Numbered from the stretch's first letter, positions 19,118 to 55,050 are shown. The stretch: DNA of 64,000 bases from Candidatus Woesearchaeota archaeon (GCA_041660865.1 JBAZVO010000005.1:62626-126625); one strand, 5' to 3'. Program-made: numbers and translations. The notes: a model not told the origin generated them from the letters alone.

Positions 19118-19401
19118 TAGTATGGAACGGCGGTTTAAAACACGTATTTGTGTTTGCCGTCGGATTCATTTTTTTAATTCTTGTATTTTATGGTTTTTTT
19201 GAGAGAGTTTTATGTGTGCTGTATTGTGGCGTCTGGTTTTTTGTTTTTCATAGTCTTTGTTTTCATGGTTTTTTTTTGTTTTTTTTCCCTCTTTTCGTTT
19301 TTTTATTCTTTTTTTTTTGGGTTCGGTTTTTATTCTTTTATTTAGATGATTTGTATTTTTCTGCGATATATATTTAAAATAGAAATTTAACTAAACTATT
19401 T

Positions 19402-20061: not shown

Positions 20062-22218
20062 ATGTCAGGGGATGAAAAAATGAAAGGAAAATTAATTTTA
20101 GGATTTTTTCTGATTGCAGCACTTGTTGTAACAGGATGTATTCCTCAAACGCCAATTAATGGAACTGAGGATTTATCAATAGGAACTCAAGAAGGTCTTC
20201 TTGGAAATAATAATGTTAAAGATAGTAACTTCAAAAACGTTGAAGAATATCAAGCATTCATTAAAGATCATTCTAGTGGAAGCGCAGGATATTATGGACG
20301 TCTGGGCGGAGTTATGATGGAAGCTACTGCGGCCATGAAATCTTCAGATTCAATAGATGTTTCAAATTCAGGTAGTGGTGTTGATTTTTCAGGCACAAAT
20401 AATCAAGTTATAGGTGTTGATGAAGCAGATATGTTAAAAACTGATGGAGAATATATTTATACAATAACTGAGAATGTTGTATTTATAATAAACTCATATC
20501 CTGGAAAAGAAGCTGAAGTTGTATCTAAAATAAAATTCGATAAAGATTATCCAACAGCATTATTTATCGAGGGTAATAAACTTGCAGTAATTGGAACTGT
20601 TAATGATTTTAATTTTTTAAGCGCTCAAGGATTTTCAAGAAATCAAGGATATACATTTGTAAAAATCTATGATATTTCAAATAGAGCAAAACCAACATTA
20701 TTAAAAGAATTAAAATACGAAGGACAATATAATGATGCAAGATTAATCGGATCTGATATGTATTTAGTATCTACATTTTATCCTGAATATAGAACTGATT
20801 ATCCAACTCCATTATATTTTGAAGGAACAGTAAAAAAAGAAATGGCTGTACAAAATATACATTATTTCAATATACCTTATACTAATCCTTCTTTTGTTAT
20901 TGTTAATTCTGTAAATTTAGAAAAACAAACAACGACGGATTCAGTTGCATTAACTGTTGAAGGATATCCTAATGTGTATATGTCAGAAGATAATTTGTAT
21001 TTAGTTTACACAGAATACATAAATGAATGGGAATTTGAACAACAAGTAAGATTGGAATTAATTGTTCCAAAATTATCTTTAGAAGATCAAAAATTTGTTC
21101 AAAAAATAAATGCTGCAGATTCTGATATTTTATCAAGATATGAAAAACAATCAAAAATAATGCAAGTTGTTGAAAAATATGTGTATAGTCTTCCAGAAAA
21201 AGATAGAGATGCACTTCAAGTAGAAATAGATGCAATTGTTAAAAAAAGACTATCTGAATACAAATATGCAGAATATACAATAATAAATAAAATAGGAATT
21301 AACAAAGGTCAAGTTTCAATTGAAGCTAATGGAAAAGTTCCAGGACATATATCAAATCAGTTTTCAATGGATGAATTTGAAGGAAACTTTAGAATTGCAA
21401 CAACCATAAGTCAAAGATGGTCAAGATTTATGACTGGTAATGATGTTACAACAACGAATGTTGCAACAGATGAAAAAATTGCAATAATGCCTCCAAATGG
21501 ACGATCTGAATCAATAAATAATATGTATGTTTTAGATTCAAATCTTAAAGAATTAGGCGCAATTGAGGGTTTAGCCAAAGGAGAGCAAATATATTCTGTA
21601 AGATTTATGGGTGATAGGGCATACGTTGTTACATTCAGACAAGTTGATCCTTTCTTTGTAATAGATTTGAAAGATCCATCAACACCTGCTGTACTTGGAG
21701 AATTAAAAATACCTGGCTTTTCAAAATACTTGCATCCATATGATGCAAATACCATAATAGGAATAGGACGAGACGCAACAGAATCAGGAAGAGCTGAAGG
21801 ATTAAAAGTTAGTCTTTTTGATGTATCTGATGTCGCAAATCCAAAAGAAATTGCAAAATATGTATCGGATGAAAAATATGCAAGTTCAACTGCAGAATGG
21901 GAACATAAAGCATTTTTATTCTCTAAAGAAAAGAATTTGCTTGTGCTTCCAGTATATAGCTACGGATACAATGGTGGGCAGAGTATGAATGGTGCACTTG
22001 TCTTTAAAATAACTAAAGATAGCATCAATTTAAGAGGTCTTGTTGATCATGGAAGTCAAAATAACTATGGTCCAACAGTTGAAAGAAGCCTATACATTAA
22101 TGACGAGCTTTATACAAAGAGTCCATATTTATTAAGAGTTAATTCACTTGTTGACTTGAGCAGCATAAAGAATGTAACTTTAATTGTAAATGAAGACTCA
22201 ATTATTAAAAAATATTAA
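20062..22218 (+). CDS. Secreted beta-propeller-domain lipoprotein
   Basis: Signal peptide with lipobox VVTGC. Beta_propel-like motifs (VDEADMLKTDGEYIY, RFMGDRAYVVTFRQVDPFFVIDL, GFSKYLHPY). The start may be the ATG at 20080. Confidence 0.7.
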   Translation: MSGDEKMKGKLILGFFLIAALVVTGCIPQTPINGTEDLSIGTQEGLLGNNNVKDSNFKNVEEYQAFIKDHSSGSAGYYGRLGGVMMEATAAMKSSDSIDVSNSGSGVDFSGTNNQVIGVDEADMLKTDGEYIYTITENVVFIINSYPGKEAEVVSKIKFDKDYPTALFIEGNKLAVIGTVNDFNFLSAQGFSRNQGYTFVKIYDISNRAKPTLLKELKYEGQYNDARLIGSDMYLVSTFYPEYRTDYPTPLYFEGTVKKEMAVQNIHYFNIPYTNPSFVIVNSVNLEKQTTTDSVALTVEGYPNVYMSEDNLYLVYTEYINEWEFEQQVRLELIVPKLSLEDQKFVQKINAADSDILSRYEKQSKIMQVVEKYVYSLPEKDRDALQVEIDAIVKKRLSEYKYAEYTIINKIGINKGQVSIEANGKVPGHISNQFSMDEFEGNFRIATTISQRWSRFMTGNDVTTTNVATDEKIAIMPPNGRSESINNMYVLDSNLKELGAIEGLAKGEQIYSVRFMGDRAYVVTFRQVDPFFVIDLKDPSTPAVLGELKIPGFSKYLHPYDANTIIGIGRDATESGRAEGLKVSLFDVSDVANPKEIAKYVSDEKYASSTAEWEHKAFLFSKEKNLLVLPVYSYGYNGGQSMNGALVFKITKDSINLRGLVDHGSQNNYGPTVERSLYINDELYTKSPYLLRVNSLVDLSSIKNVTLIVNEDSIIKKY

Positions 22219-22341
22219 TTTTTTTATTTTTTTTTAAATTATTTTTGAATCGTTCGCTCGATGACTTTTTTTTATTTTCTTTTTTTTCGATATTTATATA
22301 AATAAAGCATTTTTCTTTTTTCTTAAACGCAATTGTTAATT

Positions 22342-22474
22342 GCGGAGGTAGCCAAGCGGCCTAAGGCGACCGCCTGCAGAAGCAGACAACTGCTGTATTG
22401 AGCACGAACGTCAAGTTAGTGCGATGATAAAACTAGACAGCGGTTATCCGGGGGTTCGAATCCCTCCCTCCGCT
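22342..22474 (+). tRNA. tRNA-Cys (anticodon GCA) with a 59-nt intron (22380-22438) after position 37
   Basis: Acceptor GCGGAGG/CCTCCGC, anticodon stem ACCGC/GCGGT, loop CTGCAG..A, T arm GGGGG-TTCGAAT-CCCTC. The discriminator is U, as expected for tRNA-Cys. Confidence 0.8.
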
Positions 22475-22513
22475 CTTTTTTTTCGTTACTTCTCAGTGAC
22501 AATATACGAAAGA

Positions 22514-22521
22514 TTTAAATA
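22514..22521 (+). promoter_or_regulatory. Candidate TATA box (TTTAAATA) with a purine-rich BRE, for the thrS leader transcript
   Basis: GAAAGATTTAAATAAG is repeated exactly at 29158-29173 ahead of another cassette gene. It lies about 47 nt upstream of the leader ORF's ATG. Confidence 0.45.
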
Positions 22522-22567
22522 AGAGTTATGTTTCTATAATAAAATAATTAGTAAATATGGTGGTATT

Positions 22568-22648
22568 ATGAATGCAAACAAAAATAATGGAAAAGGAATT
22601 TTGTCTGAATTAGTTATTTCTCTAAATACCACTACAACCACTGCATGA
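22568..22648 (+). CDS. Candidate thrS leader peptide MNANKNNGKGILSELVISLNTTTTTA
   Basis: A 26-codon ORF with five consecutive Thr codons (ACC ACT ACA ACC ACT, 22628-22642). An SD-like GGTGG lies 5 nt upstream. It sits 222 nt upstream of the thrS start. Confidence 0.55.
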   Translation: MNANKNNGKGILSELVISLNTTTTTA

Positions 22649-22810
22649 ATGCAGCTCATTGTTATTCTATCTTAAAAAGAATCTCTGATTCTTGTTTTGT
22701 CTGGAGCTGGTAACTCTATAGATAAAATCTCAATCTTTAATTCTGATAAAAAACTCTGACTGAAAATTATAATTTTGAAAATAAGAAATAAGACTATAAA
22801 AAATAAAACA

Positions 22811-22862
22811 CGGAGGTAACGAAAATCAAAGATTTTCGAAACCTCCTCAATAAATTCGGAGG
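22811..22862 (+). promoter_or_regulatory. Decoy-SD / anti-SD hairpin plus the true thrS SD
   Basis: GGAGGTAACGAAAATC-AAA-GATTTTCGAAACCTCC forms a 14-bp stem with a 2x2 internal loop (22811-22845). ACCTCC (22840-22845) can alternatively pair with the thrS SD GGAGGT (22857-22862), which is 8 nt before the ATG at 22871. Confidence 0.55.
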
Positions 22863-22870
22863 TAATAAAA

Positions 22871-24316
22871 ATGGAAAATAATCAAAAATTTAAGAATAGA
22901 GAAGAAATAGTAAAAGAAATTCAAAGTAGGCATCTTATTTTAATGCCTGATGGACGAGAAATGCTGCTGGATCTAAAAAATCCTGAAGAAGTAAAAAGAA
23001 TACTAGATGAAGTTGGTGACGAAGAATTGAAAGCGTATATGCTCTCTGAAGAATTGAAGGGACAGCCAAAGGAAGAGCCACCTTCAATTAAAATGATGCA
23101 GCAACATGAACTCATAGGTTATGAGCCGTCGAGTGATTCAGGAAATTTTAGTATGTGGCCTAAAGGAAATTTAATATTTAGTCTCCTAAGAGATTGGTCG
23201 CATGAAATTGCTGTGAATAGATTGCAGGCAATGCAGATTGAGTCACCAGTATTATATGATTGGTCAGACCCAGAAATTCAGGAACAAGCAGGCTCTTTCC
23301 ATGAGAGGCATTACATAGTGAAAGCTCCAGATGATGATAAGAAAGAATTCATCTTGAGATTTGCAGCAGACTTTGGTCTCTTCAAAATTATGAAGAAAGC
23401 CAATTTTAGCCACAAGATGCTTCCTGTAAGAATGTATGAATTCTCCAAAAGTTTCAGATATGAAAAAAGCGGAGAATTATCTGGACTAAAAAGACTTCGA
23501 GCATTTCACATACCTGACTTGCATTGCTTCTGCAAAGATATTCCTCAAGGATGGGTTGAATATCAGCATCTCTACAAAGAGTATGTTAATCTTGCAAAAG
23601 GAGCAGGCGTTAAGTATGCAGTTGGATTTAGGATTGTGGAAGAGTTCTACAAAGAGCACAAAGAGAGACTTGTTGAGTTGCTGCAATACTCAAAGAGACC
23701 CGCATTTATAGAAGTGCTCTCAAAGATGAAGCATTATTGGGCTGTAAAAAATGAATTCCAAGGAATTGATAGCGTCGGTGGAAATATGCAACTGGTAACT
23801 GTGCAACTTGATGTCAAAGATGCGAAAGTCTATGGCATCAACTATGTGGATAGTGACGGAAGCAAAAAAGGATGCATAATTTGTCATTCAAGTATTGGCA
23901 GTATTGAAAGATGGATTTATGCAATACTTGAGGAAGCTTTGAAAAAAGAAAAACCTCAGCTTCCACTTTGGCTCTCTCCATCGCAGATAAGATTGATTCC
24001 AGTAAATCAAGCACAGATTGAATATTGTAAGTCGCTTAAATTTGACGGAGTTAGAATTGACATCGATGACAGCAATGATAGTTTAGGAAAGAAAATTGCG
24101 AATGCAAATAAAGAATGGATTCCTTACGTTGCAGTCATCGGCAATAAAGAAATGGAATCGGGCAAACTGATGGTGAACATAAGAGAAGATGGAAGCAAAA
24201 AAGAATTTTCCATCGTTGAACTTGAGAATGAGATTAAATCTAAATCTCAAGGAATGCCATTTAGACCTTTGCCTGTGCCTAAACTTGTAAGCCAAAGACC
24301 AATATTTTACGGATAA
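22871..24316 (+). CDS. thrS: Threonyl-tRNA synthetase, catalytic plus anticodon-binding domains only (no N-terminal editing domain)
   Basis: Class II motifs (FSKSFRYEKSGELSGLKRLRAFHIPDLHCF; GCIICHSSIGSIERWIYAILE). At 481 aa it is short, and the N-terminal ~70 aa do not resemble an editing domain. Confidence 0.85.
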   Translation: MENNQKFKNREEIVKEIQSRHLILMPDGREMLLDLKNPEEVKRILDEVGDEELKAYMLSEELKGQPKEEPPSIKMMQQHELIGYEPSSDSGNFSMWPKGNLIFSLLRDWSHEIAVNRLQAMQIESPVLYDWSDPEIQEQAGSFHERHYIVKAPDDDKKEFILRFAADFGLFKIMKKANFSHKMLPVRMYEFSKSFRYEKSGELSGLKRLRAFHIPDLHCFCKDIPQGWVEYQHLYKEYVNLAKGAGVKYAVGFRIVEEFYKEHKERLVELLQYSKRPAFIEVLSKMKHYWAVKNEFQGIDSVGGNMQLVTVQLDVKDAKVYGINYVDSDGSKKGCIICHSSIGSIERWIYAILEEALKKEKPQLPLWLSPSQIRLIPVNQAQIEYCKSLKFDGVRIDIDDSNDSLGKKIANANKEWIPYVAVIGNKEMESGKLMVNIREDGSKKEFSIVELENEIKSKSQGMPFRPLPVPKLVSQRPIFYG

Positions 24317-24347
24317 GAACTTTTTTCTTTCTTTTTTTCTTTTGATA

Positions 24348-24477
24348 TTTCTTGTTGGATTTTTTCGATCTCAAATTTTTCTTCAGTCGATAAAAAACAG
24401 GGATTTGAACGCTTTTGTAGTATTCCCTCCCTCCGCTCCTTATTTTAATTACTTGAAAGTGATAAACTTATAAATTG
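24348..24477 (+). repeat. Cassette-boundary repeat A1, containing an exact 15-nt copy of the tRNA-Cys 3' end
   Basis: TCCCTCCCTCCGCTC at 24424-24438 is identical to 22461-22475. The downstream TTACTTGAAAGTGATAA resembles TTACTTCTCAGTGACAA that follows the tRNA. Confidence 0.85.
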
Positions 24478-24499
24478 ATTTGTATTTCTTTTTAAAATA

Positions 24500-25168
24500 A
24501 TGGCTAATTTGAAACAAGATTTATTTATGGCTCATACGGCTTTGATGAAAAATATTGACTTGGGTGGCTTTTTAAGAGGATACACTTTACTTGATGTTGG
24601 CTCAGATTCTTTTGTGTATAAATCTAATTTAGAAGAAAAAATTATCAAAGTTTATGTCCCTCTTAGATTGACTTCAGGACAAGATTTTACTGTCGAGGAT
24701 GTTTTTGAAACTGTTAAATTATATAATTCTGATACATTGAAAGCAAAGAAAGCAGTAGAAGAAAGTTGGGGCGCGGTCTCTGATGAAATCAGAAGCATTG
24801 TCCTTAATGGCGTAAAATATGATGTTTTGGTTTCTATTTTGCCTCAAGGCGATGTGATGGGTATGGTGGGAGGTGAAGCTCTTGCTATTGGTCAGAGATA
24901 TATTGAAGGAAATAATTTAAAACAAATATTTGAACACAGTGAGAGAATTAAAGGGTTTGAAAATTTTTATAATGCACCAAATGAAAGTTCAACTAAAATT
25001 CGTCAAATGCTCGCTAATGCATCTATGTTAATAAATAACGCTGTCGGTGTTCCGTTTCAAATAGATAATAAAAATGTCAAGCCTGTTTTGTATTCTGATA
25101 ACAAAGTTCTTGATTTAATAGTAACTGACTTAGCAGATTCTATTGTTGCCAATTATTGTATTTTGTAA
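24500..25168 (+). CDS. Hypothetical protein (cassette gene)
   Basis: An ORF of 222 aa between repeats A1 and A2, with no recognised motif. Confidence 0.45.
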   Translation: MANLKQDLFMAHTALMKNIDLGGFLRGYTLLDVGSDSFVYKSNLEEKIIKVYVPLRLTSGQDFTVEDVFETVKLYNSDTLKAKKAVEESWGAVSDEIRSIVLNGVKYDVLVSILPQGDVMGMVGGEALAIGQRYIEGNNLKQIFEHSERIKGFENFYNAPNESSTKIRQMLANASMLINNAVGVPFQIDNKNVKPVLYSDNKVLDLIVTDLADSIVANYCIL

Positions 25169-25204
25169 TTGTTTTTTCTAAAAGTGTTTGCTTTGAATTT
25201 CTTA

Positions 25205-25337
25205 GTTTTTTTGTTGGATTTCTTCGAACCCAATTTTTTCTTCAGTCGATGCGAATTCGGGATTTGAACGCTTTTGTTATCTTTCCTCCCTCCGCTTCTT
25301 CACTTTTAAGTGATAACAAATCGAAATATTTATAAGT
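25205..25337 (+). repeat. Cassette-boundary repeat A2
   Basis: It aligns with A1 over about 130 bp at roughly 80% identity by eye (TTGTTGGATTT..TTCTTCAGTCGAT..GGGATTTGAACGCTTTTGT). Core CCTCCCTCCGCT is at 25285-25296. Confidence 0.85.
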
Positions 25338-25358
25338 CAGAAGAGATTATTTAATAGA

Positions 25359-25874
25359 ATGTTGAGAGTTGAACCGAATCTACCATATGCTGGAATAGTA
25401 GTTGATTTTAAACTATTGAGAAATGAGCTTGTAAAAGTGTATTTTACAAATATTCTTGGACGTGATCCTAGTATCTATGAGTGGGGCACTTGCGGTTTAT
25501 CACAAGATGATTTGCTGGTTGGCTTATCTAAATCGATTCCTGGGAAAGCTAATGTTGGTGTACCTCATATTGTTGTTTCATTTCCACATGTTACTGCAGT
25601 CTATAGGTGGGGAAATCCTTCTGAATCTAATGAACGAGAAACAAATATTTATCGTTTAGGTTTAGGTAAAACTGAAGAATTGACGGAAATAATATTTCCA
25701 GAACCAAAATTTCCTTTTGAGGTAGGATGTCCAGCAGAGATACATATTATTGGTAGGGAGATGGGATTTCGAAGTACAGCAAATACATTGGATGAGTATA
25801 TGAGGATGGCGGTACCAATTGGAACTTCAATACCTATAGCAAATTCTAATATGATTTATCAATCACGTAGATAA
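25359..25874 (+). CDS. Hypothetical protein (cassette gene)
   Basis: An ORF of 171 aa between A2 and A3. Confidence 0.45.
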   Translation: MLRVEPNLPYAGIVVDFKLLRNELVKVYFTNILGRDPSIYEWGTCGLSQDDLLVGLSKSIPGKANVGVPHIVVSFPHVTAVYRWGNPSESNERETNIYRLGLGKTEELTEIIFPEPKFPFEVGCPAEIHIIGREMGFRSTANTLDEYMRMAVPIGTSIPIANSNMIYQSRR

Positions 25875-25879
25875 TAAAA

Positions 25880-26040
25880 AATTCCCGCTTCGAACGCTTT
25901 CACGAAGTGAAACAAAGCAAAACGAAGCTTTGCGTGCACAGAAAATTTTTAATTTTCTCGTGGCTCGGAGCTTTAGCGACTGAGGTTTTGTTATCTTCCC
26001 TACCTCCGCTCCTTTTTATTCTACTTTTCCGACGGTATAA
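25880..26040 (+). repeat. Cassette-boundary repeat A3 (hairpin-rich long form)
   Basis: GCTTCGAACGCTTT, small hairpins (TTTCAC-GAA-GTGAAA), TAGCGACTGAGGTTTTGTTATCTTCCC. Core TCCCTACCTCCGCTC is at 25997-26011, with 1 mismatch. Confidence 0.8.
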
Positions 26041-26106
26041 TTGTGTTAATTAAGATATAGTTTCTGAATTAATGTTTAAAATATTAGAAAATTAAAAAAA
26101 CAGTTT

Positions 26107-26706
26107 TTACTTTTCGCATAACGCGATGTTCCAAACATTTCCTTTTTTTAAGTGGACTGATGAGAAATGCTGTTTTAGTAGTTTTTCAAACTGCGAGCTG
26201 GTCCAGTTTTGTAAATGCCCGGGAGAATTTCCAAAATCTGAGATGTATTTTCCTCTAATAAAATTTCCTAATCTGAAATATGGTTCATTTGGAACAGAAA
26301 AAATACTTTGTTTTTTCATAACTCTTTTAGCTTCATCTAAAAAAAGATGGGGGTGTTCTTGATGCTCTAATACTTCAGTAGCTATAACAAGATCGAAAGA
26401 GTTATTTTCAAAAGGGAGAGAATATCCGTTGCCAGTTATTGCTTTAAAGTTATATGTTTTACTACAAAAATTTATTTTTTCTGCAGATATGTCTATTCCA
26501 GTTACATCGTACCCATTTAATGTTGAAATGTAGTTTGTGATTTCTCCTTGTCCGCAACCTATGTCTAATACTGTTTTTGCATTTGTTTCTAATATTAATT
26601 GGTTTAGGTTTGAAAAATAAGTTTTTACTAGATATTTAATGATTGGATTGCCACTTCTTACATGATTGTAAAAATCTTTTTCTTCCATTTTTTTTATGAA
26701 AAACAA
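26107..26706 (-). CDS. Class I SAM-dependent methyltransferase (cassette gene)
   Basis: VLDIGCGQGE motif I and FDLVIATEVLEH. Confidence 0.75.
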   Translation of the reverse strand: MFFIKKMEEKDFYNHVRSGNPIIKYLVKTYFSNLNQLILETNAKTVLDIGCGQGEITNYISTLNGYDVTGIDISAEKINFCSKTYNFKAITGNGYSLPFENNSFDLVIATEVLEHQEHPHLFLDEAKRVMKKQSIFSVPNEPYFRLGNFIRGKYISDFGNSPGHLQNWTSSQFEKLLKQHFSSVHLKKGNVWNIALCEK

Positions 26707-26749
26707 AGGCGTTTATAAAACTTTCCTTTATTAATCACTTAATAGTAGT

Positions 26750-26912
26750 TTCAAACCCAGAATTTTGCTCTCGTCGATGTAAATTCCTGCTTCGAACGTT
26801 TCAACGACAGTTGAAGCTCGGAACGCTTTTACGCAAGTAAAAGTTCGGAACTTTGGTGACTGAATTAGCGACTGAGGTTTTGTTATCTTCCCACTTTTCG
26901 CTAACGTTCTAA
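26750..26912 (+). repeat. Cassette-boundary repeat A4 (long form, related to A3)
   Basis: It shares AATTCCTGCTTCGAACG and TTAGCGACTGAGGTTTTGTTATCTTCCC with A3. The hairpins are kept with different sequence (TTCAAC-GACA-GTTGAA; CTTTTAC-GCAA-GTAAAAG). The core has decayed to TTCCCACTTTTCGCT. Confidence 0.75.
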
Positions 26913-26914
26913 AT

Positions 26915-27739
26915 CTATTCCAATTTCTTCTTCTCTTCTCGTTTCGGCAAAAAGTTATTTTTAGAAACTATGCTTTTTCCGAGGTTCAATTCGAGATCTT
27001 CTCGTGCTCTTTTAGCGATGTTGCCTCCGATGTTTGCTGACTCTTTGCACTCTTCGAGTCCTTTGGAATCTTTAACTTTAGTAATATCTGTTGTAGCTTT
27101 TTCTCCAAGCATGGTAAAGATTAACTCCCAATCAGTCATGTGATCGCGCAAATTCTGATTTTGTTTCTTCAGTTCTTTGAATTCTTTGTATTCGCCAACT
27201 GTTTTTCCAAAAGTCGCTTTAGAAATCTCGTTTGTCAGTATTGCGAATTCTTGCTCAGTATTTACTTCTCTATTCTTCCATTCATCAGTTAATTCCTGTC
27301 GCACAGCAATTCCGCGAAGTCTTTTATCTATCCAGTCTTTTGGATAACCTTTCAATTCATAATACTCTTTGATTCTATCTTGCCCAAGTTCTGGATTCTC
27401 TATCTCTTCAATTCTTTCGTATCCGACTTGCGCAAGCCATAATTTGAATGGTTCTGCTTTCTTTGATGGGATAGATTGAATTATGCGAAATAATGATTTT
27501 GTGTTTGCACAATCTGTTTCATAAAATTTACCATCAGAAGAGGCCAATTTCAGTTGTCGACAATTTGTCGATAACTCGACTCCTTGCTCCAATTCTCTTT
27601 TTTTTAATCTGTACCAGTAGTCTTTTGGGTCTGTACTTTCAGTAAGAACAGCAACAACATCTACAACTGAGAAATACCATTCATTATCATACATTATTCT
27701 TCTGATTTTTTGGTCCTGGAATACAGCTATTTTGTTCAT
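26915..27739 (-). CDS. Bro-N / DinD-like (phage antirepressor-type) DNA-binding protein
   Basis: N-terminal Bro-N pattern (IRRIMYDNEWYFSVVDVVAVLTES..DPKDYW) and a DinD-like C-terminal region. The start is set at MNKIAVF because a TATA-like element lies inside the longer ORF. Confidence 0.65.
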   Translation of the reverse strand: MNKIAVFQDQKIRRIMYDNEWYFSVVDVVAVLTESTDPKDYWYRLKKRELEQGVELSTNCRQLKLASSDGKFYETDCANTKSLFRIIQSIPSKKAEPFKLWLAQVGYERIEEIENPELGQDRIKEYYELKGYPKDWIDKRLRGIAVRQELTDEWKNREVNTEQEFAILTNEISKATFGKTVGEYKEFKELKKQNQNLRDHMTDWELIFTMLGEKATTDITKVKDSKGLEECKESANIGGNIAKRAREDLELNLGKSIVSKNNFLPKREEKKKLE

Positions 27740-27796
27740 AGTTACAGAAAAGCATATCTTGTTTAAATATTTTGAGTGTAAATTTGTCCAGTGCAT

Positions 27797-27895
27797 CGAC
27801 TCAAATTTTCTGCTTCGTTCGATTTTGTTCTCTTTCCTTCGCTACTCTTAATTCACTGGTCAGAATATGTCGAAACATTTATATAATACCTTAAT
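27797..27895 (+). repeat. Cassette-boundary repeat A5 (decayed) plus a TATA-like CATTTATATAA
   Basis: CTGCTTCGTTCGATTTTGTTCTCTTTCCTTCGCTACTC aligns to the GCTTCGAACGCTTTTGTTATCTTCCCTCC..CGCT consensus. Confidence 0.6.
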
Positions 27896-27929
27896 TTAGG
27901 TATGATTGTACTATAAATAAGGTATTTGT

Positions 27930-28556
27930 ATGTTGACGCCGAAACAAATTAGAATATTTGAAGTGTTTTTGAGAAAACCTTACAAGGAAGTTACATATAA
28001 GGAAATAAAGGAGTTTTCAAGAGAAAAATCAAATTCTATTATTCAAACTGCGTTAATAAAGTTTCTTTCTGACGAACTTGTTATGAAGAGAGGTGTAGGA
28101 AATATTAATTTGTACTCGATAAATTTTGAGAATAGTTCAGTTTTTGCGTACTTTGACATATTAATAAAAGAAAAAACTCCAAAATTATTAAGGGCTAGCT
28201 TGAAGATAATAAGAGAAGAACTCTCAAACGTAGAATTTATTTCAATAGTTATTTTTGGTTCGTATGCGGAAGGAAAACAAAAAGAAAAATCGGATCTGGA
28301 CGTTGCGATTTTTGTGAATTCTGTAAATGATAAAAAAAGTTGCGAGTTCGCGATGAAATCGGCGGAGCTTAAATCAATATTGCCATTGGATGTTCATGTC
28401 ATAACTAAGAATGAGATGCGACAAATGCTCAAAGATAAAAATGAGAATTTAGGAAAGCAGATAGCTTGCAAACATCTTGCGGTTTATAATCCGATAATTT
28501 TTTATTCCATACTTGCTGAGGGGATAAATAATGGATTCAAAATTATATATTCATAG
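27930..28556 (+). CDS. wHTH plus minimal nucleotidyltransferase (MNT-type antitoxin-like)
   Basis: GSYAEGKQKEKSDLDVAIFV (G-S...D-x-D NTase signature). It overlaps the downstream HEPN gene by 26 nt. Confidence 0.75.
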   Translation: MLTPKQIRIFEVFLRKPYKEVTYKEIKEFSREKSNSIIQTALIKFLSDELVMKRGVGNINLYSINFENSSVFAYFDILIKEKTPKLLRASLKIIREELSNVEFISIVIFGSYAEGKQKEKSDLDVAIFVNSVNDKKSCEFAMKSAELKSILPLDVHVITKNEMRQMLKDKNENLGKQIACKHLAVYNPIIFYSILAEGINNGFKIIYS

Positions 28557-28998
28557 GGCGGAAAATGAGATAAAACTTGCTGGAATAATTTTTGTTATAA
28601 GTGAAGAACCAAGCATACAAAAAGAAACTTTTAAAGTTAATGATCCTGAAACATATTACAGTGCAGTTATTGCACACAGCTATTATAGTATATTTTATGG
28701 TGCGAAAGCATATCTGGCAAAGAAAGGAATTGATGTTTCTGCTCCAGAAGAACATAAGAAAGCATTTGTTGAATTCAAGAAATTTGTTGAGAGTGGAGAA
28801 CTCGACGTTGAACTCCTTAAAATATATCAAGAAGCGCTGGTTAGAGCAGAGTATTTGCTAGGACTCTTCAAAGAAGAGAAGAAGAAACGAGGAGAATTTA
28901 CTTATCGAACAATGCCTCAAGCGAACAAAGAGCCAGCAAAAGAGAGCATAGAACATGCTAAGACTTTCTTCAAACACATGTATGCTATTTTAGGATAA
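28531..28998 (+). CDS. HEPN domain protein (partner of the MNT gene)
   Basis: The HEPN-like helix pattern AHSYYSIFYGAKAYLAKKGI...HKKAFVEF. I saw no clear RX4-6H motif. Confidence 0.6.
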   Translation: MDSKLYIHRAENEIKLAGIIFVISEEPSIQKETFKVNDPETYYSAVIAHSYYSIFYGAKAYLAKKGIDVSAPEEHKKAFVEFKKFVESGELDVELLKIYQEALVRAEYLLGLFKEEKKKRGEFTYRTMPQANKEPAKESIEHAKTFFKHMYAILG

Positions 28999-29029
28999 GA
29001 CTGGTTTGTTATCTTTTATGTTTTGTATT

Positions 29030-29177
29030 GTCGAATTTTTTATGTTGGTTTTTTCGAATTCATTTTTCATCGTTTGATGAGATGAATTTTTCGCTTCGTT
29101 CGTTTTTGTTATTATTCTTTTTATGCTATTTTATTACTCAAAAGTGGTTAAAAATAGAAAGATTTAAATAAGTTCTT
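29030..29177 (+). repeat. Cassette-boundary repeat A6 (decayed) plus promoter element
   Basis: TTGTTGGTTTTTTCGAA..., hairpin AATTCAT-TTT-TCATC-GTTT-GATGA-G-ATGAATT, CGCTTCGTTCGTTTTTGTTATTATTC, then GAAAGATTTAAATAAG, which is identical to 22510-22525. Confidence 0.6.
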
Positions 29178-29192
29178 GAGTTACACATATTT

Positions 29193-29864
29193 ATGTTATT
29201 GAATGGAAGAATATTTGAACCTGAGGGGAATAATAATCATTATTTTCAAAAAACGTTGAAGTATTACAATTCTTTTGAAAGTGTGGTTTATGCTAAAGCT
29301 GCTTATGACGTGATCAATAGCAAAATTGGCTTTTCGAATATTAATTCAGTTAAAATTATGGCTTGCGGATTAGATCTGGCGGGTCAGGTTATTGCATACA
29401 CTCATCCTAATATTCAAGTTCACACATCTGATATTGATACGAATGTAATTGGTGAATTATATTATAAAAATCCCTTCAAGAATTTGGAATTGAGTGTTGA
29501 AGATGCAGAGAAAAATAGGAAAGAACACATAGAATGTTTTGACCTTGTCTATATGAGTATGAGTCTTCATCATATGTATAATCCTGAAATCGTGATAAAA
29601 AATATGTTATCTTATTCAAAAAAGCATGTTATGATTGTAGATTATTTAAGGGAGATGGAAGAAGATGCATATAATAATATACTCTCTCTTGAAAAATCAG
29701 GGGTACTTTATGGTTCTTTAGTATCAGATTCAATTCAAGCATCTTTGTCGAGGAAAGAATATGGAGAAATAGTTGAATCTTTAAATTTGAAAAATGTATT
29801 AGAATTTAGCAGAGAAAAAGAAGGATTGAAAACAAGTGCAGCATTTCTTATGCTTGAAAAATAA
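29193..29864 (+). CDS. Putative SAM-dependent methyltransferase-like protein (cassette gene)
   Basis: Weak motif I (IMACGLDLAG) and DLVYMSMSLHH. Tentative. Confidence 0.45.
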   Translation: MLLNGRIFEPEGNNNHYFQKTLKYYNSFESVVYAKAAYDVINSKIGFSNINSVKIMACGLDLAGQVIAYTHPNIQVHTSDIDTNVIGELYYKNPFKNLELSVEDAEKNRKEHIECFDLVYMSMSLHHMYNPEIVIKNMLSYSKKHVMIVDYLREMEEDAYNNILSLEKSGVLYGSLVSDSIQASLSRKEYGEIVESLNLKNVLEFSREKEGLKTSAAFLMLEK

Positions 29865-30091
29865 TATTTTTTGGGATAAACCTCTGAATGTGTATCTGGT
29901 TTAAATATTTTGAGTGCAAATTTATTTAATATTATTTTCTAAATTTATTAATTCGTTCTTGTTTGTTGTATTTCATTTTATTTGCTTCTTTTTCTTTCTT
30001 TTTGTTTATTTTCATTTAATTGTTATAATTCTTCTAAATTGAGAAATTTGGCGTTTTTTTCCGTAACGTGTATAAATGGAGGAGTATTACT

Positions 30092-30439
30092 ATGTTTATG
30101 GCAACAGCATATTACAAGGTAAATAAAAAAGAGAATAGATTTTTTAATGATAGGGTAAGATCAAGTCCTGTTGCCAAAAAAACGGATTCTGAGAAATCAA
30201 TTAAGGAATTACTAAATAGTTTGAGTCTTGATCAATTAAAAGTTATTGCAAAAAATCATGGTATTGTGCTTCAAGCAGTTATGGAAAAAGGATTGTTTGA
30301 AGCAAGAAGTGTTGAACCGACAAAATATCAATATGTTGAAAAACTTTTAAATGTTGTTGATTCTAAAGAATTAAAAATTGTACAAGTGGATGCTAAGGTT
30401 GTTAAAAAGGGAAGAAGACAATCAAATAATCCTTGGTAA
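30092..30439 (+). CDS. Hypothetical protein
   Basis: ATG preceded by GGAGG. It has a possible SAP/Rho-N-like helix pair (SIKELLNSLSLDQLKVIAKNHGI). Confidence 0.35.
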   Translation: MFMATAYYKVNKKENRFFNDRVRSSPVAKKTDSEKSIKELLNSLSLDQLKVIAKNHGIVLQAVMEKGLFEARSVEPTKYQYVEKLLNVVDSKELKIVQVDAKVVKKGRRQSNNPW

Positions 30440-30565
30440 ATTTTTATTAATTCTGGTTTAAGAGTATTTTTTGATAATCTTATTTGTTAATAAGATGATT
30501 TTTACCAAATTTATAAAAATATTTATAAAAAGAACTTAAAGATAGATGTTATTTTAGGAGGTGTA

Positions 30566-30991
30566 TTGATGAAAGCGTTATGGATTTTTGCATTAGTTTT
30601 GTTAATGTTGCCTTTTGCATATGCAGAAGAGTGTAAGTACAATGAAGATGTTTTAAGTTCGATGGATGGGGCTAATATTGCAGATAATGGTCTTGCTAAA
30701 AGATTGTTCGGAAAAGATACAGGTATAAAATTAATCATTTCTGATGAACAAAAAGAGTATTATTTTAGCATAACTAATTATACTGTCTCATACAAGGGAA
30801 CAGAGGTAGTTGAAACCATAGGGTTTATAGTAACAACTGATGCCTGCACATTACAAAGAATTGATCAAGGTGGAGATGTTTTTAAAGAATATCAGGATAA
30901 AAACATAGTTGTTAAAGGAAACACTGGTGGGAAAAAAACCAAAATGTTTTTTGGCAAAATAGGTTTTTGGTTCTATAATGTGTTTAGTTAA
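30566..30991 (+). CDS. Secreted hypothetical protein
   Basis: N-terminal signal peptide (WIFALVLLMLPFAYA). Confidence 0.45.
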   Translation: MMKALWIFALVLLMLPFAYAEECKYNEDVLSSMDGANIADNGLAKRLFGKDTGIKLIISDEQKEYYFSITNYTVSYKGTEVVETIGFIVTTDACTLQRIDQGGDVFKEYQDKNIVVKGNTGGKKTKMFFGKIGFWFYNVFS

Positions 30992-51769: not shown

Positions 51770-51880
51770 GCCTCCGTGGCTTAGCGGTATAGCGCGACAT
51801 TGGTATTTTTGCTGCAAGCAAAAGCTTGGAATGCAATGACAAAGATGTCGAGGTCGTGAGTTCAAATCTCACCGGAGGCT
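51770..51880 (+). tRNA. tRNA-Thr (anticodon GGT) with a 39-nt intron (51806-51844)
   Basis: Acceptor GCCTCCG/CGGAGGC, anticodon stem CGACA/TGTCG, loop TTGGTA..A, T arm GTGAG-TTCAAAT-CTCAC. Confidence 0.75.
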
Positions 51881-51946
51881 TATTTTCTTCATTTTTATTC
51901 TAATAAAATAACCTTTATATACTGATTGTTTGTTCTTTAGTTTTAT

Positions 51947-52061
51947 GAGGAGGTAGCAAAGCCTGGTCAAATGCGCAGGACTTAAGTTGCCCGATAAAGA
52001 ATGTCGGTTTGAGACATCCTGTCCCTTAGTGGGTTCAAGGGTTCGAATCCCTTCCTCCTCA
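51947..52061 (+). tRNA. tRNA-Leu (anticodon TAA) with a 29-nt intron (51987-52015)
   Basis: Acceptor GAGGAGG/CCTCCTC, anticodon stem CAGGA/TCCTG, loop CTTAAG..A, a long variable arm (CCC-TTAGT-GGG), T arm AAGGG-TTCGAAT-CCCTT. Confidence 0.8.
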
Positions 52062-52217
52062 GATTAATTGTGAGAAAGGTTTGATGTAATATTCACTTAT
52101 TGCATTTTCCTTTCTCATTTTTTTCTTTTTATGATTGGCTATTCTTGCCAAATATTCTAATAACTCAATAGAAATGTTTAAAAAAGAATTCGAATTTACT
52201 ATTATTTGTGAATAATA

Positions 52218-53143: not shown

Positions 53144-53239
53144 GAGTATTCATATAGATGAGCTTTTGGAGTTATATTTTTTTTGTAAAAATTCGAAACT
53201 TTTAAAAGAGGATTGAGTATCCTTATAAAAACAGCGTGT

Positions 53240-53311
53240 GCGAGAGTAGTATAGTGGTTAGTATTTGGCCTTGCCAAGGCTGAGACACGGGTTCGAATCC
53301 CGTCTCTCGCA
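53240..53311 (+). tRNA. tRNA-Gly (anticodon GCC)
   Basis: Acceptor GCGAGAG/CTCTCGC, anticodon loop TTGCCAA, T arm CACGG-GTTCGAATC-CCGTC. Confidence 0.85.
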
Positions 53312-53337
53312 TGCGAAACACGTGCTAAGAGGGTGTT

Positions 53338-53443
53338 GAGCCCGTAGCTTAGCCTGGTGGAGCGCCGGTCTTATATGACTTCGTTTCATTGCAGACGGCT
53401 CGAAGAGAGCCGGTGGTCGGGAGTTCAAATCTCCCCGGGCTCA
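53338..53443 (+). tRNA. tRNA-Ile (apparent anticodon TAT) with a 32-nt intron (53376-53407)
   Basis: Acceptor GAGCCCG/CGGGCTC, anticodon stem CCGGT/GCCGG, loop CTTATA..A, T arm GGGAG-TTCAAAT-CTCCC. The anticodon call assumes the canonical 37/38 intron position. Confidence 0.6.
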
Positions 53444-53539
53444 TGAAACTATGAGGCTGGGGGCTGAGAGCAAAAGCGACTCTGTCCCCGGGCTCACCTT
53501 CATCAATAATTAATATTCATTGGACTGTAAGATCAGGTT

Positions 53540-53614
53540 GCTCCTGTGGTGTAGTCCGGCCAATCATTTCGCCCTTTCGAGGCGAAGACTCGGGTTCGAA
53601 TCCCGGCGGGAGCA
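53540..53614 (+). tRNA. tRNA-Glu (anticodon TTC)
   Basis: Acceptor GCTCCTG/CGGGAGC, anticodon arm TCGCC-CTTTCGA-GGCGA, T arm TCGGG-TTCGAAT-CCCGG. Confidence 0.88.
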
Positions 53615-53661
53615 CTTCTTTTTTTATTAAGAATTAGGGCATTTTCTTTAGAAATACATTA

Positions 53662-54300
53662 TTATTTTGTGAAAACTATTTTCGAATAATAATCAATTAG
53701 CTTTTGACCTAAATCAGTAATGCTCGCAGATTGTCTGTGTTTGTATTCATTAAATTCGGCAACGCATGTTTTCCACATGTCTTCTCCAAATTTAATTCCT
53801 TGTTCAACTAATTCAGGATTTTCTAAATCTTCTGGTTGCCATTTTCTGTGAATTAAACTAAGAGCGTAGTCCTTGTTAGTCCAATTATCTCTATAAATTA
53901 GATTTGTATAATCCAAACCAAAAAGATTAACTTTTTTGTTTAATTTTTCTCCAAGGATATTCCAATCTGCTTGTTTAGGGATGAAAATACCTTCTGATTC
54001 AAGTGTATTTATTGGAGCAACAAAAAATCCATATTTCTTGATGGCAAATTCTAAACCTATATCTTTTCCGTCTGTTAAAAAACCTAAATTATATTTTTGT
54101 ATAAATTCTCCTTTTGAAAGTTTTCCCGCAGAAACATCTTCGGCCTTCTGCATTAAATAATTATGTGTTATTGCTTCTACGCCATACAAAAGTAATCCAT
54201 GATTAAAACCGTGGTTGACATCTGTGCCAAACTTCAAATTTTCCAGAGTTAAGGAGTTCAAAGTATTTTTTAACATTATGTCTAAATCAGGCAAGTTCAT
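53662..54300 (-). CDS. Hypothetical protein (cassette gene)
   Basis: An ORF of 212 aa between tRNA-Glu and repeat B1. Confidence 0.45.
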   Translation of the reverse strand: MNLPDLDIMLKNTLNSLTLENLKFGTDVNHGFNHGLLLYGVEAITHNYLMQKAEDVSAGKLSKGEFIQKYNLGFLTDGKDIGLEFAIKKYGFFVAPINTLESEGIFIPKQADWNILGEKLNKKVNLFGLDYTNLIYRDNWTNKDYALSLIHRKWQPEDLENPELVEQGIKFGEDMWKTCVAEFNEYKHRQSASITDLGQKLIDYYSKIVFTK

Positions 54301-54365
54301 GATGACTTGTAGTTATTTCTAATTTATAAATGTTTTGTTTTTTATCACTTATAAGTAATTATTAT

Positions 54366-54441
54366 TTGTTTCGTTTTTCCTCTCTAACCTGCGAAATGCA
54401 CGGCGGGAGCACTTCTTTTTTTATTAACAAAAAGAGCATTA
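54366..54441 (+). repeat. Cassette-boundary repeat B1, containing an exact 27-nt copy of the tRNA-Glu 3' end plus trailer
   Basis: CGGCGGGAGCACTTCTTTTTTTATTAA at 54401-54427 is identical to 53604-53630. It is preceded by the arm TTCGTTTTTCCTCTCTAACCTGCGAAATGCA. Confidence 0.9.
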
Positions 54442-54507
54442 AGTATTTGTTCTTGTTGAATCAGTTTTCCAATAATTATATAATTATTATAAGTCTTCTA
54501 TTTGTTT

Positions 54508-54873
54508 ATGGAATTACATGCTCTAATATCTGCCTTGAGAAAATCTTGGAATAAAGATACTTGTCATCTTTCTATATCAAATAACTGGTCTAAAGATAAT
54601 AGGGCATATGGTCAATGTGTTGTCACTGCATTAATTGTACAAGATTATTTTGGTGGTGAAATTCTTCATTGCGAGCACACACATCATCACTGGAATAAAA
54701 TATCCTCAGGAGAGGAAATTGACCTTACAAAAGAACAATTCTCACTAGGAACAAAAATATGCATAGATGATAAACCTTCTCGAGAATATTTATTAAATAA
54801 TCCTGGAGCAATCAAATCTAAAACTATGGAAAGATATTTATTATTAAAAATGCGTGTTGACGCAAATTTCTAA
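54508..54873 (+). CDS. Conserved hypothetical protein (possibly YunG-like; cassette gene)
   Basis: GQCVVTALIVQDYFGGEIL...HHWNKI...IDLTKEQF. The family name is from memory only. Confidence 0.45.
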   Translation: MELHALISALRKSWNKDTCHLSISNNWSKDNRAYGQCVVTALIVQDYFGGEILHCEHTHHHWNKISSGEEIDLTKEQFSLGTKICIDDKPSREYLLNNPGAIKSKTMERYLLLKMRVDANF

Positions 54874-55002
54874 TCCATAACTACACTCACCAAAAGGCAG
54901 AAATAAACACTATGCCCAATCTATGCTCTTATGTATACTTGATATGTCTCGCTTCCAGAATCAATACTTTAAATTTTTATGGAATGTTGCTGAAAAATAA
55001 AA

Positions 55003-55050
55003 TTTCGTTTTTCTGTTCTAACTATGAAATGCACGGCGGGAGCGCTTTAT
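55003..55050 (+). repeat. Cassette-boundary repeat B2
   Basis: TTTCGTTTTTCTGTTCTAACTATGAAATGCACGGCGGGAGCGC has the same arm as B1. Core CGGCGGGAGC is at 55034-55043. Confidence 0.85.

Follow-up and report, generated by a model that had tools for sequence, protein, structure and literature searches.

A tRNA-Cys-anchored array of small gene units in a Candidatus Woesearchaeota archaeon, probably an additive genomic island

Seven gene units behind tRNA-Cys

We have analysed a stretch of 64,000 nt (hereafter the window) from Candidatus Woesearchaeota archaeon (GCA_041660865.1 JBAZVO010000005.1:62626-126625). After a beta-propeller protein gene, the window carries on its + strand an intron-containing tRNA-Cys(GCA) gene at 22342-22475 (end 22474/5; Rfam RF00005, 48.2 bits; ARAGORN with introns allowed, -i), followed by an island of 7.6 kb (22476-29986) in which seven junctions, A1 to A7, delimit seven units of 0.7-2 kb with one or two genes each. 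In every junction an upstream arm, related from one junction to the next, precedes a copy of the last 13-15 nt of tRNA-Cys; the last 15 nt of the tRNA gene itself, TCCCTCCCTCCGCTC (22461-22475), represent the recombination core on the attL side. An intact tRNA gene at one end together with displaced same-strand 3' fragments, five out of seven of them above chance, is the make-up of a tDNA island, and the units, with att-type repeats on their flanks and no recombination genes, would correspond to cis-mobilizable elements.

Unit 1, putatively the newest (22476-24438, + strand), has a promoter module (22476-22545), a leader ORF with Thr codons (22568-22648) and a thrS gene recognised by Pfam, lacking the editing domain (22871-24316, +), and ends in junction A1 (arm 24348-24423, core 24424-24438). 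thrS, a normally essential gene, is odd as the newest cargo. The same promoter and leader accompany thrS in two contigs without tRNA-Cys (L062 and L064), and since the two closest contigs with a thrS gene have the unit at a site other than tRNA-Cys, this proximal unit appears to be an inserted gene unit and not the remnant of a classical mobile element. In Unit 2 (24439-25297, +) a palindrome and TATA promoter precede the gene of a 222-aa protein of unknown function (24500-25168, +), without match in Pfam, PHROG or PADLOC, and junction A2 follows (arm 25207-25282, core 25283-25297). Unit 3 (25298-26011, +), also with its own promoter, codes for a 171-aa protein of unknown function (25359-25874, +), and its junction A3 (25876-25996, core 25997-26011) includes a hairpin-rich insert of ~90 nt (folding z -2.1).

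The next two units are oriented the other way. Unit 4 (26012-26902, -) codes for a SAM methyltransferase (26107-26691, -; Pfam Methyltransf_11, 4e-22) driven by the palindrome and TATA module in inverted copy (26713-26746; inverted repeat I1), and is closed by junction A4 (26744-26887, core 26888-26902). The single gene of Unit 5 (26903-27845, -) codes for a Bro-N protein (26915-27742, -; Pfam Bro-N; PADLOC PDC-S13, 2e-118; phrog_15286, 6e-96) with 54% identity to a gene from the contig of a bacterial temperate phage (L065); junction A5 spans 27755-27832, with a core remnant at 27833-27845. Unit 6 (27846-29128, +) holds an MNT nucleotidyltransferase gene that matches PADLOC candidates (27930-28556, +; Pfam NTP_transf_2) and a HEPN gene (28531-28998, +; Pfam HEPN), ahead of junction A6 (29039-29115, core remnant 29116-29128). 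Unit 7 (29129-29986, +), putatively the oldest, has a promoter module, a methyltransferase-like gene (29193-29864, +) and junction A7 (29892-29973, core remnant 29974-29986). What follows (29987-30991, +) is the original chromosomal flank, with conserved genes at 30093-30439 and 30566-30991 that have orthologues in a relative, L003.

The cargo includes defence-type genes (the MNT-HEPN pair and the Bro-N defence candidate), a ThrRS, methyltransferases and proteins to which no function can be assigned. The gene calls that an initial annotation had made between the boundaries were upheld by Pfam, and its impression that the island is richer in GC than its surroundings was correct, if modestly so: island genes have a GC of 0.333 vs 0.302 (p 0.018) and a GC3 of 0.259 vs 0.181 (p 0.0003). 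It had also stated that the window contains no recombinase. Indeed, no recombinase domain, Phage_integrase included, was found by Pfam in the 56 window ORFs scanned (those of the island among them), nor was a recombinase found among nine ORFs scanned in the island of another relative (L002). A phmmer search of low sensitivity, run on 1760 ORFs from all loci, was equally negative, and no free or viral copy of a junction was retrieved when IMG/VR and the JGI metagenomes were scanned for the pattern.

Junction repeats and decay of the core

The sequence TCCCTCCCTCCGCTC is found exactly at 22461 and 24424, with two mismatches at 25283 and with one at 25997 (4 matches vs 0.1 expected). When the 13-nt core was scored in register behind a TTTTGT anchor, junctions A1 to A7 gave 13, 12, 12, 9, 9, 6 and 6 matches out of 13, while 242 control sites had a mean of 4.5, a 95th percentile of 6 and a maximum of 9. 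The decay of the core described in the initial annotation is therefore real, with scores that never increase with distance from the tRNA. As the cores of A6 and A7 are at chance level, it is by the upstream arm alone that these two belong to the family.

The junctions are also related to each other outside the core. A1 and A2 share 83% identity over 94 nt, A3 and A4 have an exact 28-mer in common, and a 31-nt stretch of A7 is 94% identical to A5 (family D9). An nhmmer profile built from A1-A7 matched in the 64 kb just those seven (E 5e-10 to 8e-28; 75, 68 and 36 bits for Units 1, 6 and 7) and the 3' end of tRNA-Cys with its flank, which is absent from the model (E 0.003). The upstream arm was not found by nhmmer elsewhere in the window, and with no further match of the profile in the 64 kb the alternative of a generic intergenic motif failed; the core copies, the repeat family and the Rfam and ARAGORN calls of the tRNA all bear out an array with seven boundaries anchored at tRNA-Cys. 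Two details of the first description stood only in part. The arm quoted there, GCTTCGAACGCTTTTGTTATCTT, is a consensus: a related arm is present in all junctions, but it is intact in no single copy, the nearest match being the one at 25263 with 1 mismatch, and the ~90-nt hairpin-rich insert splits it in two in A3 and A4. The conserved spacer with a TATA element is present after A0, A1, A2 and A6, weak after A3 and A5, and absent after A4 and A7. Its conservation is in part that of a palindromic operator and of a BRE/TATA promoter that fits the consensus, which both occur elsewhere too; the palindrome of this downstream arm is also found at 5948 and 54342, and a 23-mer of the arm in two unrelated viral contigs.

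The arms on either side of the core behave as separate entities. The junctions of two relatives (L002 and L056) score 73 to the right and 11 to the left (background 99th percentile 25), the promoter module of Unit 7 scores 64 against the L002 junction with unrelated genes downstream, and the three left-arm subfamilies are out of step with the order of the array. Left and right arms are thus combined independently of each other, which puts the breakpoint at the core between them. We found no tRNA-like or other significant fold in A1, A2, A5 and A6 (RNA z -0.23 to +0.66), and Rfam at E<=1 over 22300-30200 returned the true tRNA and no further RNA family.

The same site in relatives and other tRNA genes

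The tRNA-Cys gene has orthologues located after the beta-propeller gene in L002, L003, L051 and L056, and what lies behind it varies. L003, a woesearchaeote, has an empty site, in which orthologues of w30068 and w30566, the genes of the distal flank (58.5% and 64% identical), come 24 nt after tRNA-Cys. At the same place L002 has a different 4.9-kb unit, a coherent eight-gene metal/redox operon whose bounds are exactly the tRNA and a full junction (nhmmer 61 bits, E 9e-18). L056 has just a 115-bp filler before a downstream unit of the L002 type, the protein of which is 84% identical to its L002 counterpart (other orthologues 64-90%). In a JGI metagenome contig (JGI 3300075153) two unrelated genes are followed by a conserved block of DnaD_N, thioredoxin, GrpE and DnaK, the same downstream block as in our distal flank. 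The only other assembly of the organism (L001) has an identical gene order. DNA has been inserted at this site, and the content of the units differs between relatives, with junctions of one and the same type as bounds in L002, L056 and the JGI contig; genomes with the same gene order but no repeats, the possibility that had been raised against the initial annotation, were not what we encountered. The empty site, the different fillings and the assortment of the arms support its proposal that the junctions are of the attR type and stem from serial integration at the tRNA, the closest unit being the newest.

This architecture is not restricted to tRNA-Cys but extends to tRNA-Glu and further tRNAs of the lineage. 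A second array in the window (53540-57403, +) is anchored at tRNA-Glu (53540-53615), with core copies at 54401 (11/11), 55034 (10/11), 56822 (9/11, with a weak arm) and 57393 (8/11) and 1-3 genes per interval. Its arm is a family of its own, TTTCGTTTTTC..TTCTAAC...GAAATGCA, scoring 32 vs a background 99th percentile of 25, and at 54401 the identity extends 28 nt, into the flank; core lengths range from 13-15 nt at tRNA-Cys through 17 nt in another contig (L060) to about 28 nt at tRNA-Glu. Several tRNAs are followed by gene-less mini-units of 40-140 bp, such as the one after tRNA-Ile (53445-53496, +), a 37-nt filler ending in GCGACTCTGT and then a tRNA-Ile 3' copy, and a decayed one after tRNA-Arg(TCT) (19119-19168, +; copy CGTCGGATTCA at 19158), which is intact in L051, L054 and L056. 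The arm motif GCGACTYTGT abuts the 3' copies of three tRNAs, Arg, Cys and Ile. In a census of 39 tRNAs in 928 kb of related DNA, partial copies of the tRNA's own 3' end were downstream and on the same strand in 16 cases, and never upstream or inverted (binomial p 2e-10); 11 of the 39 had such a downstream copy.

Origin of the island

The explanation that we favour, with a probability of roughly 0.6, is serial site-specific integration at the tRNA-Cys 3' end by an enzyme encoded elsewhere, each new unit taking the place next to the tRNA, the product being an additive genomic island. An incoming unit would carry a short copy of the 3' strands of the tRNA T-stem and acceptor, i.e., the 13-15-nt core; recombination at the core would restore the tRNA from the unit's own copy, and the old core and all that lies behind it would be displaced one step farther from the tRNA. 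Displaced cores, freed from tRNA function, would then decay, and it is this decay that would give the order of the units, from thrS, the newest, to the methyltransferase-like gene, the oldest. At an internal junction the newer unit would contribute its right arm and the older one its left arm, with the core in between. This left arm would contain the palindromic operator and the BRE/TATA promoter. The units would be small modules of cargo ready for expression, 0.7-2 kb long in this island, with one of 4.9 kb in a relative. Since no unit has a recombinase of its own, the enzyme would have to be supplied in trans, by a gene at another genomic location or on a co-resident element. The most likely type is a tyrosine recombinase, and the units presumably move as circles with one core. 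Some observations count against serial integration: the recombinase and the free form that were not found, thrS as the newest unit, the generic promoter in the downstream arm, the unchanged gene order in L001, and the GCGACTYTGT arm beside three different cores, which a fixed-specificity integrase does not predict.

Additive tRNA islands built by serial integrase insertion are already known, as in the tycheposons of Prochlorococcus, the Islander-type tDNA islands and the ssrA islands of Dehalococcoides (10.1101/2020.12.28.424599; PMC4383910; PMC3146451). Like ours, these have an intact proximal tRNA and partial same-strand 3' copies between units, new units push the older ones inward, copies decay with age, the genes carried are adaptive or defensive and several tRNAs per genome are used. 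What is unusual here is that the units are so small and have no integrase: they contain one or two genes in a DPANN host, integrase and replication genes are absent from them and from the neighbouring region, and the junction arms are long (90-160 nt), conserved and include a promoter. Of the features by which Islander-type islands are recognised, an empty site exists in a relative (L003), while an integrase gene inside the island does not. Comparable too are the CIMEs and the accretions of integrative elements of streptococci, att-flanked segments without recombination genes found in tandem at the 3' end of a tRNA or other gene, and thought to be mobilised by the integrase of a related element. 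However, CIMEs are bacterial, associated with conjugation and derived from decayed ICEs, and do not form arrays of seven single-gene units. Among archaea, the SSV-type, pNOB8-type and thaumarchaeal elements share the targeting of tRNA 3' ends, the direct repeats and the tandem integration (PMC8371274, PMC6563490), but their defining feature is an integrase gene (a split one in the SSV type), of which there is not even a fragment here; DPANN have 0 mentions in the 2021 review (PMC8371274). The size of our units, far below the 2.6-98 kb of archaeal cryptic integrated elements (PMC6563490), is another point against serial integration of the kind that we favour.

One could think instead that the units are decayed stubs of larger proviruses or plasmids that did bear an integrase and were serially integrated at tRNA-Cys, later deletion having removed the integrase and most genes, so that the small units were never mobile. 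We consider this unlikely, although DPANN genomes are subject to strong reduction and the gene-less 40-140 bp mini-units do resemble extreme remnants. Loss of the integrase after integration and tandem integration are both documented in archaea (PMC8371274), and tycheposon islands contain degraded remnants and scattered partial tRNAs (10.1101/2020.12.28.424599). However, the upstream arm is kept in 7 out of 7 units and the promoter arm in most, and random deletion is not expected to spare both arms seven times. The island genes are intact and lie close together, and neither pseudogenes nor pieces of an integrase occur between the ORFs; the L002 unit fits its bounds as a complete operon.

Less probable still is a transposase or casposase-like enzyme making staggered cuts at the tRNA 3' end, in which case the core would be a 13-17-bp target-site duplication not carried by the unit. 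Family 2 casposons also target tRNA 3' ends, insert there in tandem and generate direct repeats of ~14-15 bp (PMC4779613), similar in length to the 13-17 nt repeats found here, and the occurrence of GCGACTYTGT next to three different tRNA 3' ends would fit such an enzyme. But casposons are far larger and have terminal inverted repeats, absent from our units (left end vs reverse complement of the right end in 12 units, scores 10-20; background 95th percentile 19, 99th 22), as Cas1, PolB and transposase domains are from the window; besides, the arms are asymmetric on the two sides of the core, and the identity at tRNA-Glu reaches 28 nt into the flank. Equally hard to sustain is the idea that nothing moved, i.e., that a terminator-promoter module or a tRNA-like processing signal was duplicated, spread by unequal crossing-over or slippage and kept for the expression of the neighbours. 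The downstream arm, a consensus BRE/TATA plus palindromic operator that also occurs beyond the island, the T-rich stretches ahead of the arms and the exact 77-bp tandem copies in L060, which resemble slippage, would agree with it, but relatives have an empty site and alternative contents, the core decays and is not conserved, and the lack of a tRNA-like or significant fold in the junctions, the absence of the upstream arm from the rest of the window and the independent recombination of left and right arms argue in the same direction. Finally, an integron or CALIN with attC cassettes recombined by IntI can practically be discarded, in spite of the resemblance to a stock of small, mostly single-gene units separated by ~100-nt repeats at one site with the newest nearest the anchor, and of integrons reported in archaeal MAGs (PMC9668308), because there is no intI gene, the anchor is a tRNA 3' end and not attI, no single-stranded attC hairpin is formed (DNA z -1.7 to +0.55, both strands of A1, A2 and A6), neither R''/R' GTTRRRY boxes nor GTTRRRY/RYYYAAC pairs are visible in the junctions, and the units have their own TATA promoters and some inverted genes.

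More speculatively, and with much less confidence than in serial integration at tRNA-Cys itself, Woesearchaeota (DPANN) might possess a general integron-like platform for gene capture anchored at tRNA 3' ends, where promoter-bearing, recombinase-free cargo units would be inserted, stockpiled and perhaps reshuffled. The trans-acting enzyme would read generic features of the tRNA T-arm and acceptor, so that the target could be switched between tRNAs. Behind this idea are the presence of GCGACTYTGT at Arg, Cys and Ile, the arrays at both tRNA-Cys and tRNA-Glu, the mini-units, the 11 tRNAs out of 39, and the fact that even a gene for an aminoacyl-tRNA synthetase, its own leader included, is treated as a unit.

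To our knowledge, the tiny genomes of DPANN archaea contain few recognisable mobile elements, no cultured genetic system exists for them, and it is largely obscure by what route they obtain accessory and defence genes. This locus and its relatives show the point at which new genes enter these genomes, the tRNA 3' ends, and the form in which they arrive, expression-ready one-gene units. Present detection pipelines depend on the integrase gene, and partial tRNA copies offer a simple signature for finding such islands in MAGs without one. If the units are mobilised in trans, they would constitute a functional analogue of the integron built on tRNA-targeted recombination, and the recombinase would then be worth finding.

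The repeat family downstream of tRNA-Cys

The tRNA-Cys(GCA) gene at 22342-22475 contains an intron (Rfam, and ARAGORN with introns allowed) and is followed by seven junctions, A1 (the nearest) to A7, each consisting of a core that copies the tRNA 3' end and an arm on either side. The last 15 nt of the tRNA are found exactly at 24424, with two mismatches at 25283 and with one at 25997, and altogether there are four matches in the window against 0.1 expected. When the 13-nt core was scored in register behind the TTTTGT anchor, A1 to A7 gave 13, 12, 12, 9, 9, 6 and 6 matches and, as 242 control sites had a mean of 4.5 and a 95th percentile of 6, the decay with distance from tRNA-Cys that the initial annotation had described is real, with the cores of A6 and A7 at chance level. 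The 60-110 nt preceding the core unite the seven junctions in one repeat family: A1 matches A2 with 83% identity across 94 nt, A3 and A4 have in common an exact 28-mer and a hairpin-rich insert of ca. 90 nt, and A5 and A7 are 94% identical over 31 nt. An nhmmer profile of A1-A7, built leaving out the tRNA-Cys 3' end and its downstream flank (A0), matched within the 64 kb just these seven units plus A0. The possibility that the repeat is a generic intergenic motif, which the initial annotation had itself raised, is rejected for the upstream arm and holds in part for the promoter section of the downstream arm, which occurs elsewhere. To judge from its sequence, this part is a strong archaeal promoter; a 23-mer of the downstream arm (TTAAAAATAGAAAGATTTAAATA) is also present in promoters on two unrelated viral contigs, and a TCACTT-N2-AAGTGA-type palindrome is found at two other promoters of the window and, inverted, ahead of the minus-strand methyltransferase. 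Rfam also gave a sub-threshold match to the PreQ1 riboswitch within the upstream arm of A2 (25196-25238, minus strand; 28.5 bits, gathering score 39, E 0.013), which is probably due to chance in T-rich sequence.

The genes first listed for the island (22476-29986) were confirmed by Pfam. It is also richer in GC than its surroundings, as had been judged by eye (genes 0.333 vs 0.302), and the shift is clearer in GC3 (0.259 vs 0.181 in the other genes, p 0.0003). The chromosomal flanks are ordinary, with Nop56, fibrillarin, ValRS, IleRS, GrpE, DnaK, DnaJ, FtsZ and several tRNAs. Only one other assembly has exactly these proteins, in the same gene order.

Empty and differently filled sites in relatives

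The loci used for comparison were fetched through relatives of the upstream beta-propeller gene (20062-22218). In L003, one of them, whose propeller protein is 59% identical, 24 nt separate tRNA-Cys from the orthologues of two genes, w30068 and w30566, that in the window are located just past A7. The site in L003 is thus empty, and the whole of 22476-29986 is extra DNA. In another (L002) tRNA-Cys is directly followed by a 4.9-kb operon for metal/redox homeostasis (DUF5320, peroxiredoxin, DUF134, Mrp/NUBPL ATPase, EncFtn-like, FeMo-cofactor-type protein, ZIP and DsbD-like), in which no integrase was found, then by a complete junction (nhmmer 61 bits, E 9e-18, core 15/16) and by the gene for a 237-aa protein without assigned function. 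L056/L057 carry the orthologue of this gene (236 aa, 84% identical) behind the same downstream arm; here tRNA-Cys and the gene are separated by no more than 115 bp of hairpin-rich filler, whose upstream arm is different, and 3' of the gene comes a further arm, its core decayed. Since five flanking orthologues of L002 and L056 are 64-90% identical, the operon represents a presence/absence difference between related genomes at the level of a single unit. Horizontal transfer of the 237-aa gene was considered (84% vs 64% for the beta-propeller protein) and rejected because other orthologues of both genomes are 68-90% identical.

A JGI contig (3300075153), seen as a gene map only, has two unrelated genes downstream of the propeller gene, for a 314-aa protein without assigned function and for a GNAT acetyltransferase, and beyond them the conserved DnaD_N-thioredoxin-GrpE-DnaK block, which in the window comes after the island. 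In L051, tRNA-Cys is followed by a promoter resembling the downstream arm and yet another unknown gene. We put at about 0.85 the probability of an insertion island bounded by junctions of the att type. A tRNA-Cys with what is apparently a second intron, in the D-arm region, was seen in L055 (12321-13145; GCGGAGGTA[ttctgaaaagaactccaga]GCCAAGCGG); it gave no ARAGORN call and has an ORF with LAGLIDADG-like motifs immediately 5'.

Other tRNA anchors and probable recombination at the core

A second array (53540-57403) was found behind tRNA-Glu (53540-53615), with four boundaries at which copies of the tRNA 3' end decay from 11/11 at 54401, where identity runs on for 28 nt, to 10/11 at 55034, 9/11 at 56822 and 8/11 at 57393. 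Its copies have their own common upstream arm (TTTCGTTTTTC..TTCTAAC...GAAATGCA), and 1-3 genes lie between boundaries. The cargo includes a 212-aa unknown on the minus strand, whose expression is predicted to be driven by the same kind of palindrome plus TATA module as in the tRNA-Cys array (54342-54361). Gene-less mini-units are present in the window at tRNA-Ile (53482) and, decayed, at tRNA-Arg (19158), and also at tRNAs of six other loci (L028, L051, L053, L054, L056 and L060). In L060 (9621-9880) two exact 77-bp units stand in tandem behind an intron-containing tRNA, each consisting of hairpin-rich filler and a copy of the last 17 nt of the tRNA; a homologue (47% identical) of the 222-aa cassette protein of the window is encoded close by on the upstream side, in between a tRNA-Thr and this tRNA. 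The homologues of this protein in L060 and L061 were rejected as array members, being near tRNAs but not flanked by the repeat of A1-A7. Five tRNA genes of the window form two tight clusters (51770-52062 and 53239-53615), three of them with introns. ARAGORN without the intron option detects three of the seven tRNAs in the window, so default tRNA annotation misses most such anchors in this lineage.

Among 39 tRNAs in 928 kb, copies of a tRNA's own 3' end (up to two mismatches in 15 nt) were found downstream on the same strand 16 times and never upstream or inverted (p 2e-10). The 10-mer GCGACTYTGT, which reads GCGACTGAGG in A3/A4, occurs five times in the same 928 kb (L056 5580 and 9756; window 53476, 25976 and 26868), and in three cases it stands immediately 5' of a copy of a tRNA 3' end, with three different tRNAs represented (Arg-TCT, Cys and Ile). 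One arm with different cores is not accounted for by a fixed-specificity integrase. It is possible that the core copies are created by a target-duplication mechanism, in favour of which speaks the same arm adjoining different cores.

The alternative of in-situ duplication can be judged from the sequence on either side of the core, scored over 70 nt at 15 junctions (99th percentile of the background, 25). The right flanks are a single family, comprising A0, A2 and A6 of the window, the L002 and L056 junctions and the tRNA flank of L051, with scores up to 73. The left flanks fall into three subfamilies (A1/A2/L002, 57-78; A3/A4, 50; A5/A6/A7, 35-37) that do not track the order of the array. No two junctions are closer in their right flanks than those of L002 and L056 (73), whose left flanks are unrelated (11), and A6 resembles the L002 junction in its right flank (64) while the genes after it are unrelated. 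Because left and right scores disagree across junctions, the two sides of the core have different histories, which is the expected outcome of recombination at the core and is not given by in-situ duplication and drift.

Junction RNA and DNA folds were no better than shuffles, the A3/A4 insert excepted, and Rfam recognised the tRNA gene but none of the junctions, which disfavours a structured RNA or t-element, a tRNA-like processing signal and, for want of a significant single-stranded DNA fold, the integron attC sites for which a check had been proposed. A casposon-like or IS-like insertion is disfavoured by the lack of terminal inverted repeats on the units and of Cas1 or transposase in the window.

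Cargo and place among known systems

The proximal unit encodes a 481-aa ThrRS that lacks an editing domain. The homologues nearest to it (78% and 70% identical) are in other contexts; as they are away from tRNA-Cys and without the arm, thrS was rejected as a recurrent cassette with this junction. They retain the same promoter and leader, so that the whole promoter-leader-thrS block behaves as a transferable unit. The leader regions (window 22568-22870; L062 1262-1474; L064 9775-10000) have the look of archaeal control of a threonyl-tRNA synthetase gene by a leader peptide, mediated by the ribosome. In the window a 26-codon upstream ORF has Thr at all of its last five codons before the stop (MNANKNNGKGILSELVISLNTTTTTA), and those of the two homologues, from other genomes, end in KTTTTTTA and YTTTTTA. 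In each, a conserved hairpin overlaps the final Thr codons and the stop, and a second stem with seven covarying pairs (n=3) comes after it. Two alternative pairings are open to ACCTCC (22841) of the window, one with GGAGGT at 22812 and the other with the Shine-Dalgarno GGAGGT of thrS at ~22858. The leader has no Rfam match, and a full-text search of the literature for leader peptides of archaeal thrS returned no paper. In more distant Woesearchaeota (L005, L006, L010 and L011) a thrS just 37% identical to that of the window lies 2-6 kb downstream of the beta-propeller gene, with no tRNA-Cys there; the region 3' of this gene seems to draw thrS in two unrelated forms.

Among the other cargo, the Bro-N protein matches the PADLOC candidate PDC-S13 (2e-118) and phrog_15286 (6e-96) and is 54% identical to the product of a gene on a bacterial temperate-phage contig encoding GH25 lysozyme, holin and integrase. 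The MNT protein of the MNT-HEPN pair has PADLOC candidate matches and the HEPN protein has none. A recombinase domain was found in none of the 56 window ORFs scanned, in agreement with the initial annotation, and a phmmer search with phage integrase, of low sensitivity, gave no match among all fetched ORFs. Exact junction patterns had 0 matches in IMG/VR, and the match listed for the JGI metagenomes was a pyrimidine-rich contig (L050), otherwise unlike a junction; these pattern scans gave no free or viral junction copy.

For bacterial tDNA islands there is ample documentation of serial integration at tRNA 3' ends, and serial site-specific integration of this kind is the best-supported account of the array. 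Each unit would bring a replacement tRNA 3' end, displacing the previous one. The full statement, including trans-acting site-specific recombination of small units, we favour on balance, with less confidence than the insertion island itself. Tycheposon islands have been described in the same terms (10.1101/2020.12.28.424599), and tandem integration has been documented for archaeal elements (PMC8371274, PMC6563490). The membership tests speak against both a casposon and an integron. In operation the array is comparable to an additive tDNA island, and functionally also to an integron; of the testable features of a tDNA island, all were found except a resident integrase. The array differs from the known islands in its host lineage (Woesearchaeota, DPANN), in its long and conserved arms, in units that are very small, recombinase-free and, as far as their sequence suggests, expression-ready, and in that related arms apparently use several tRNAs.
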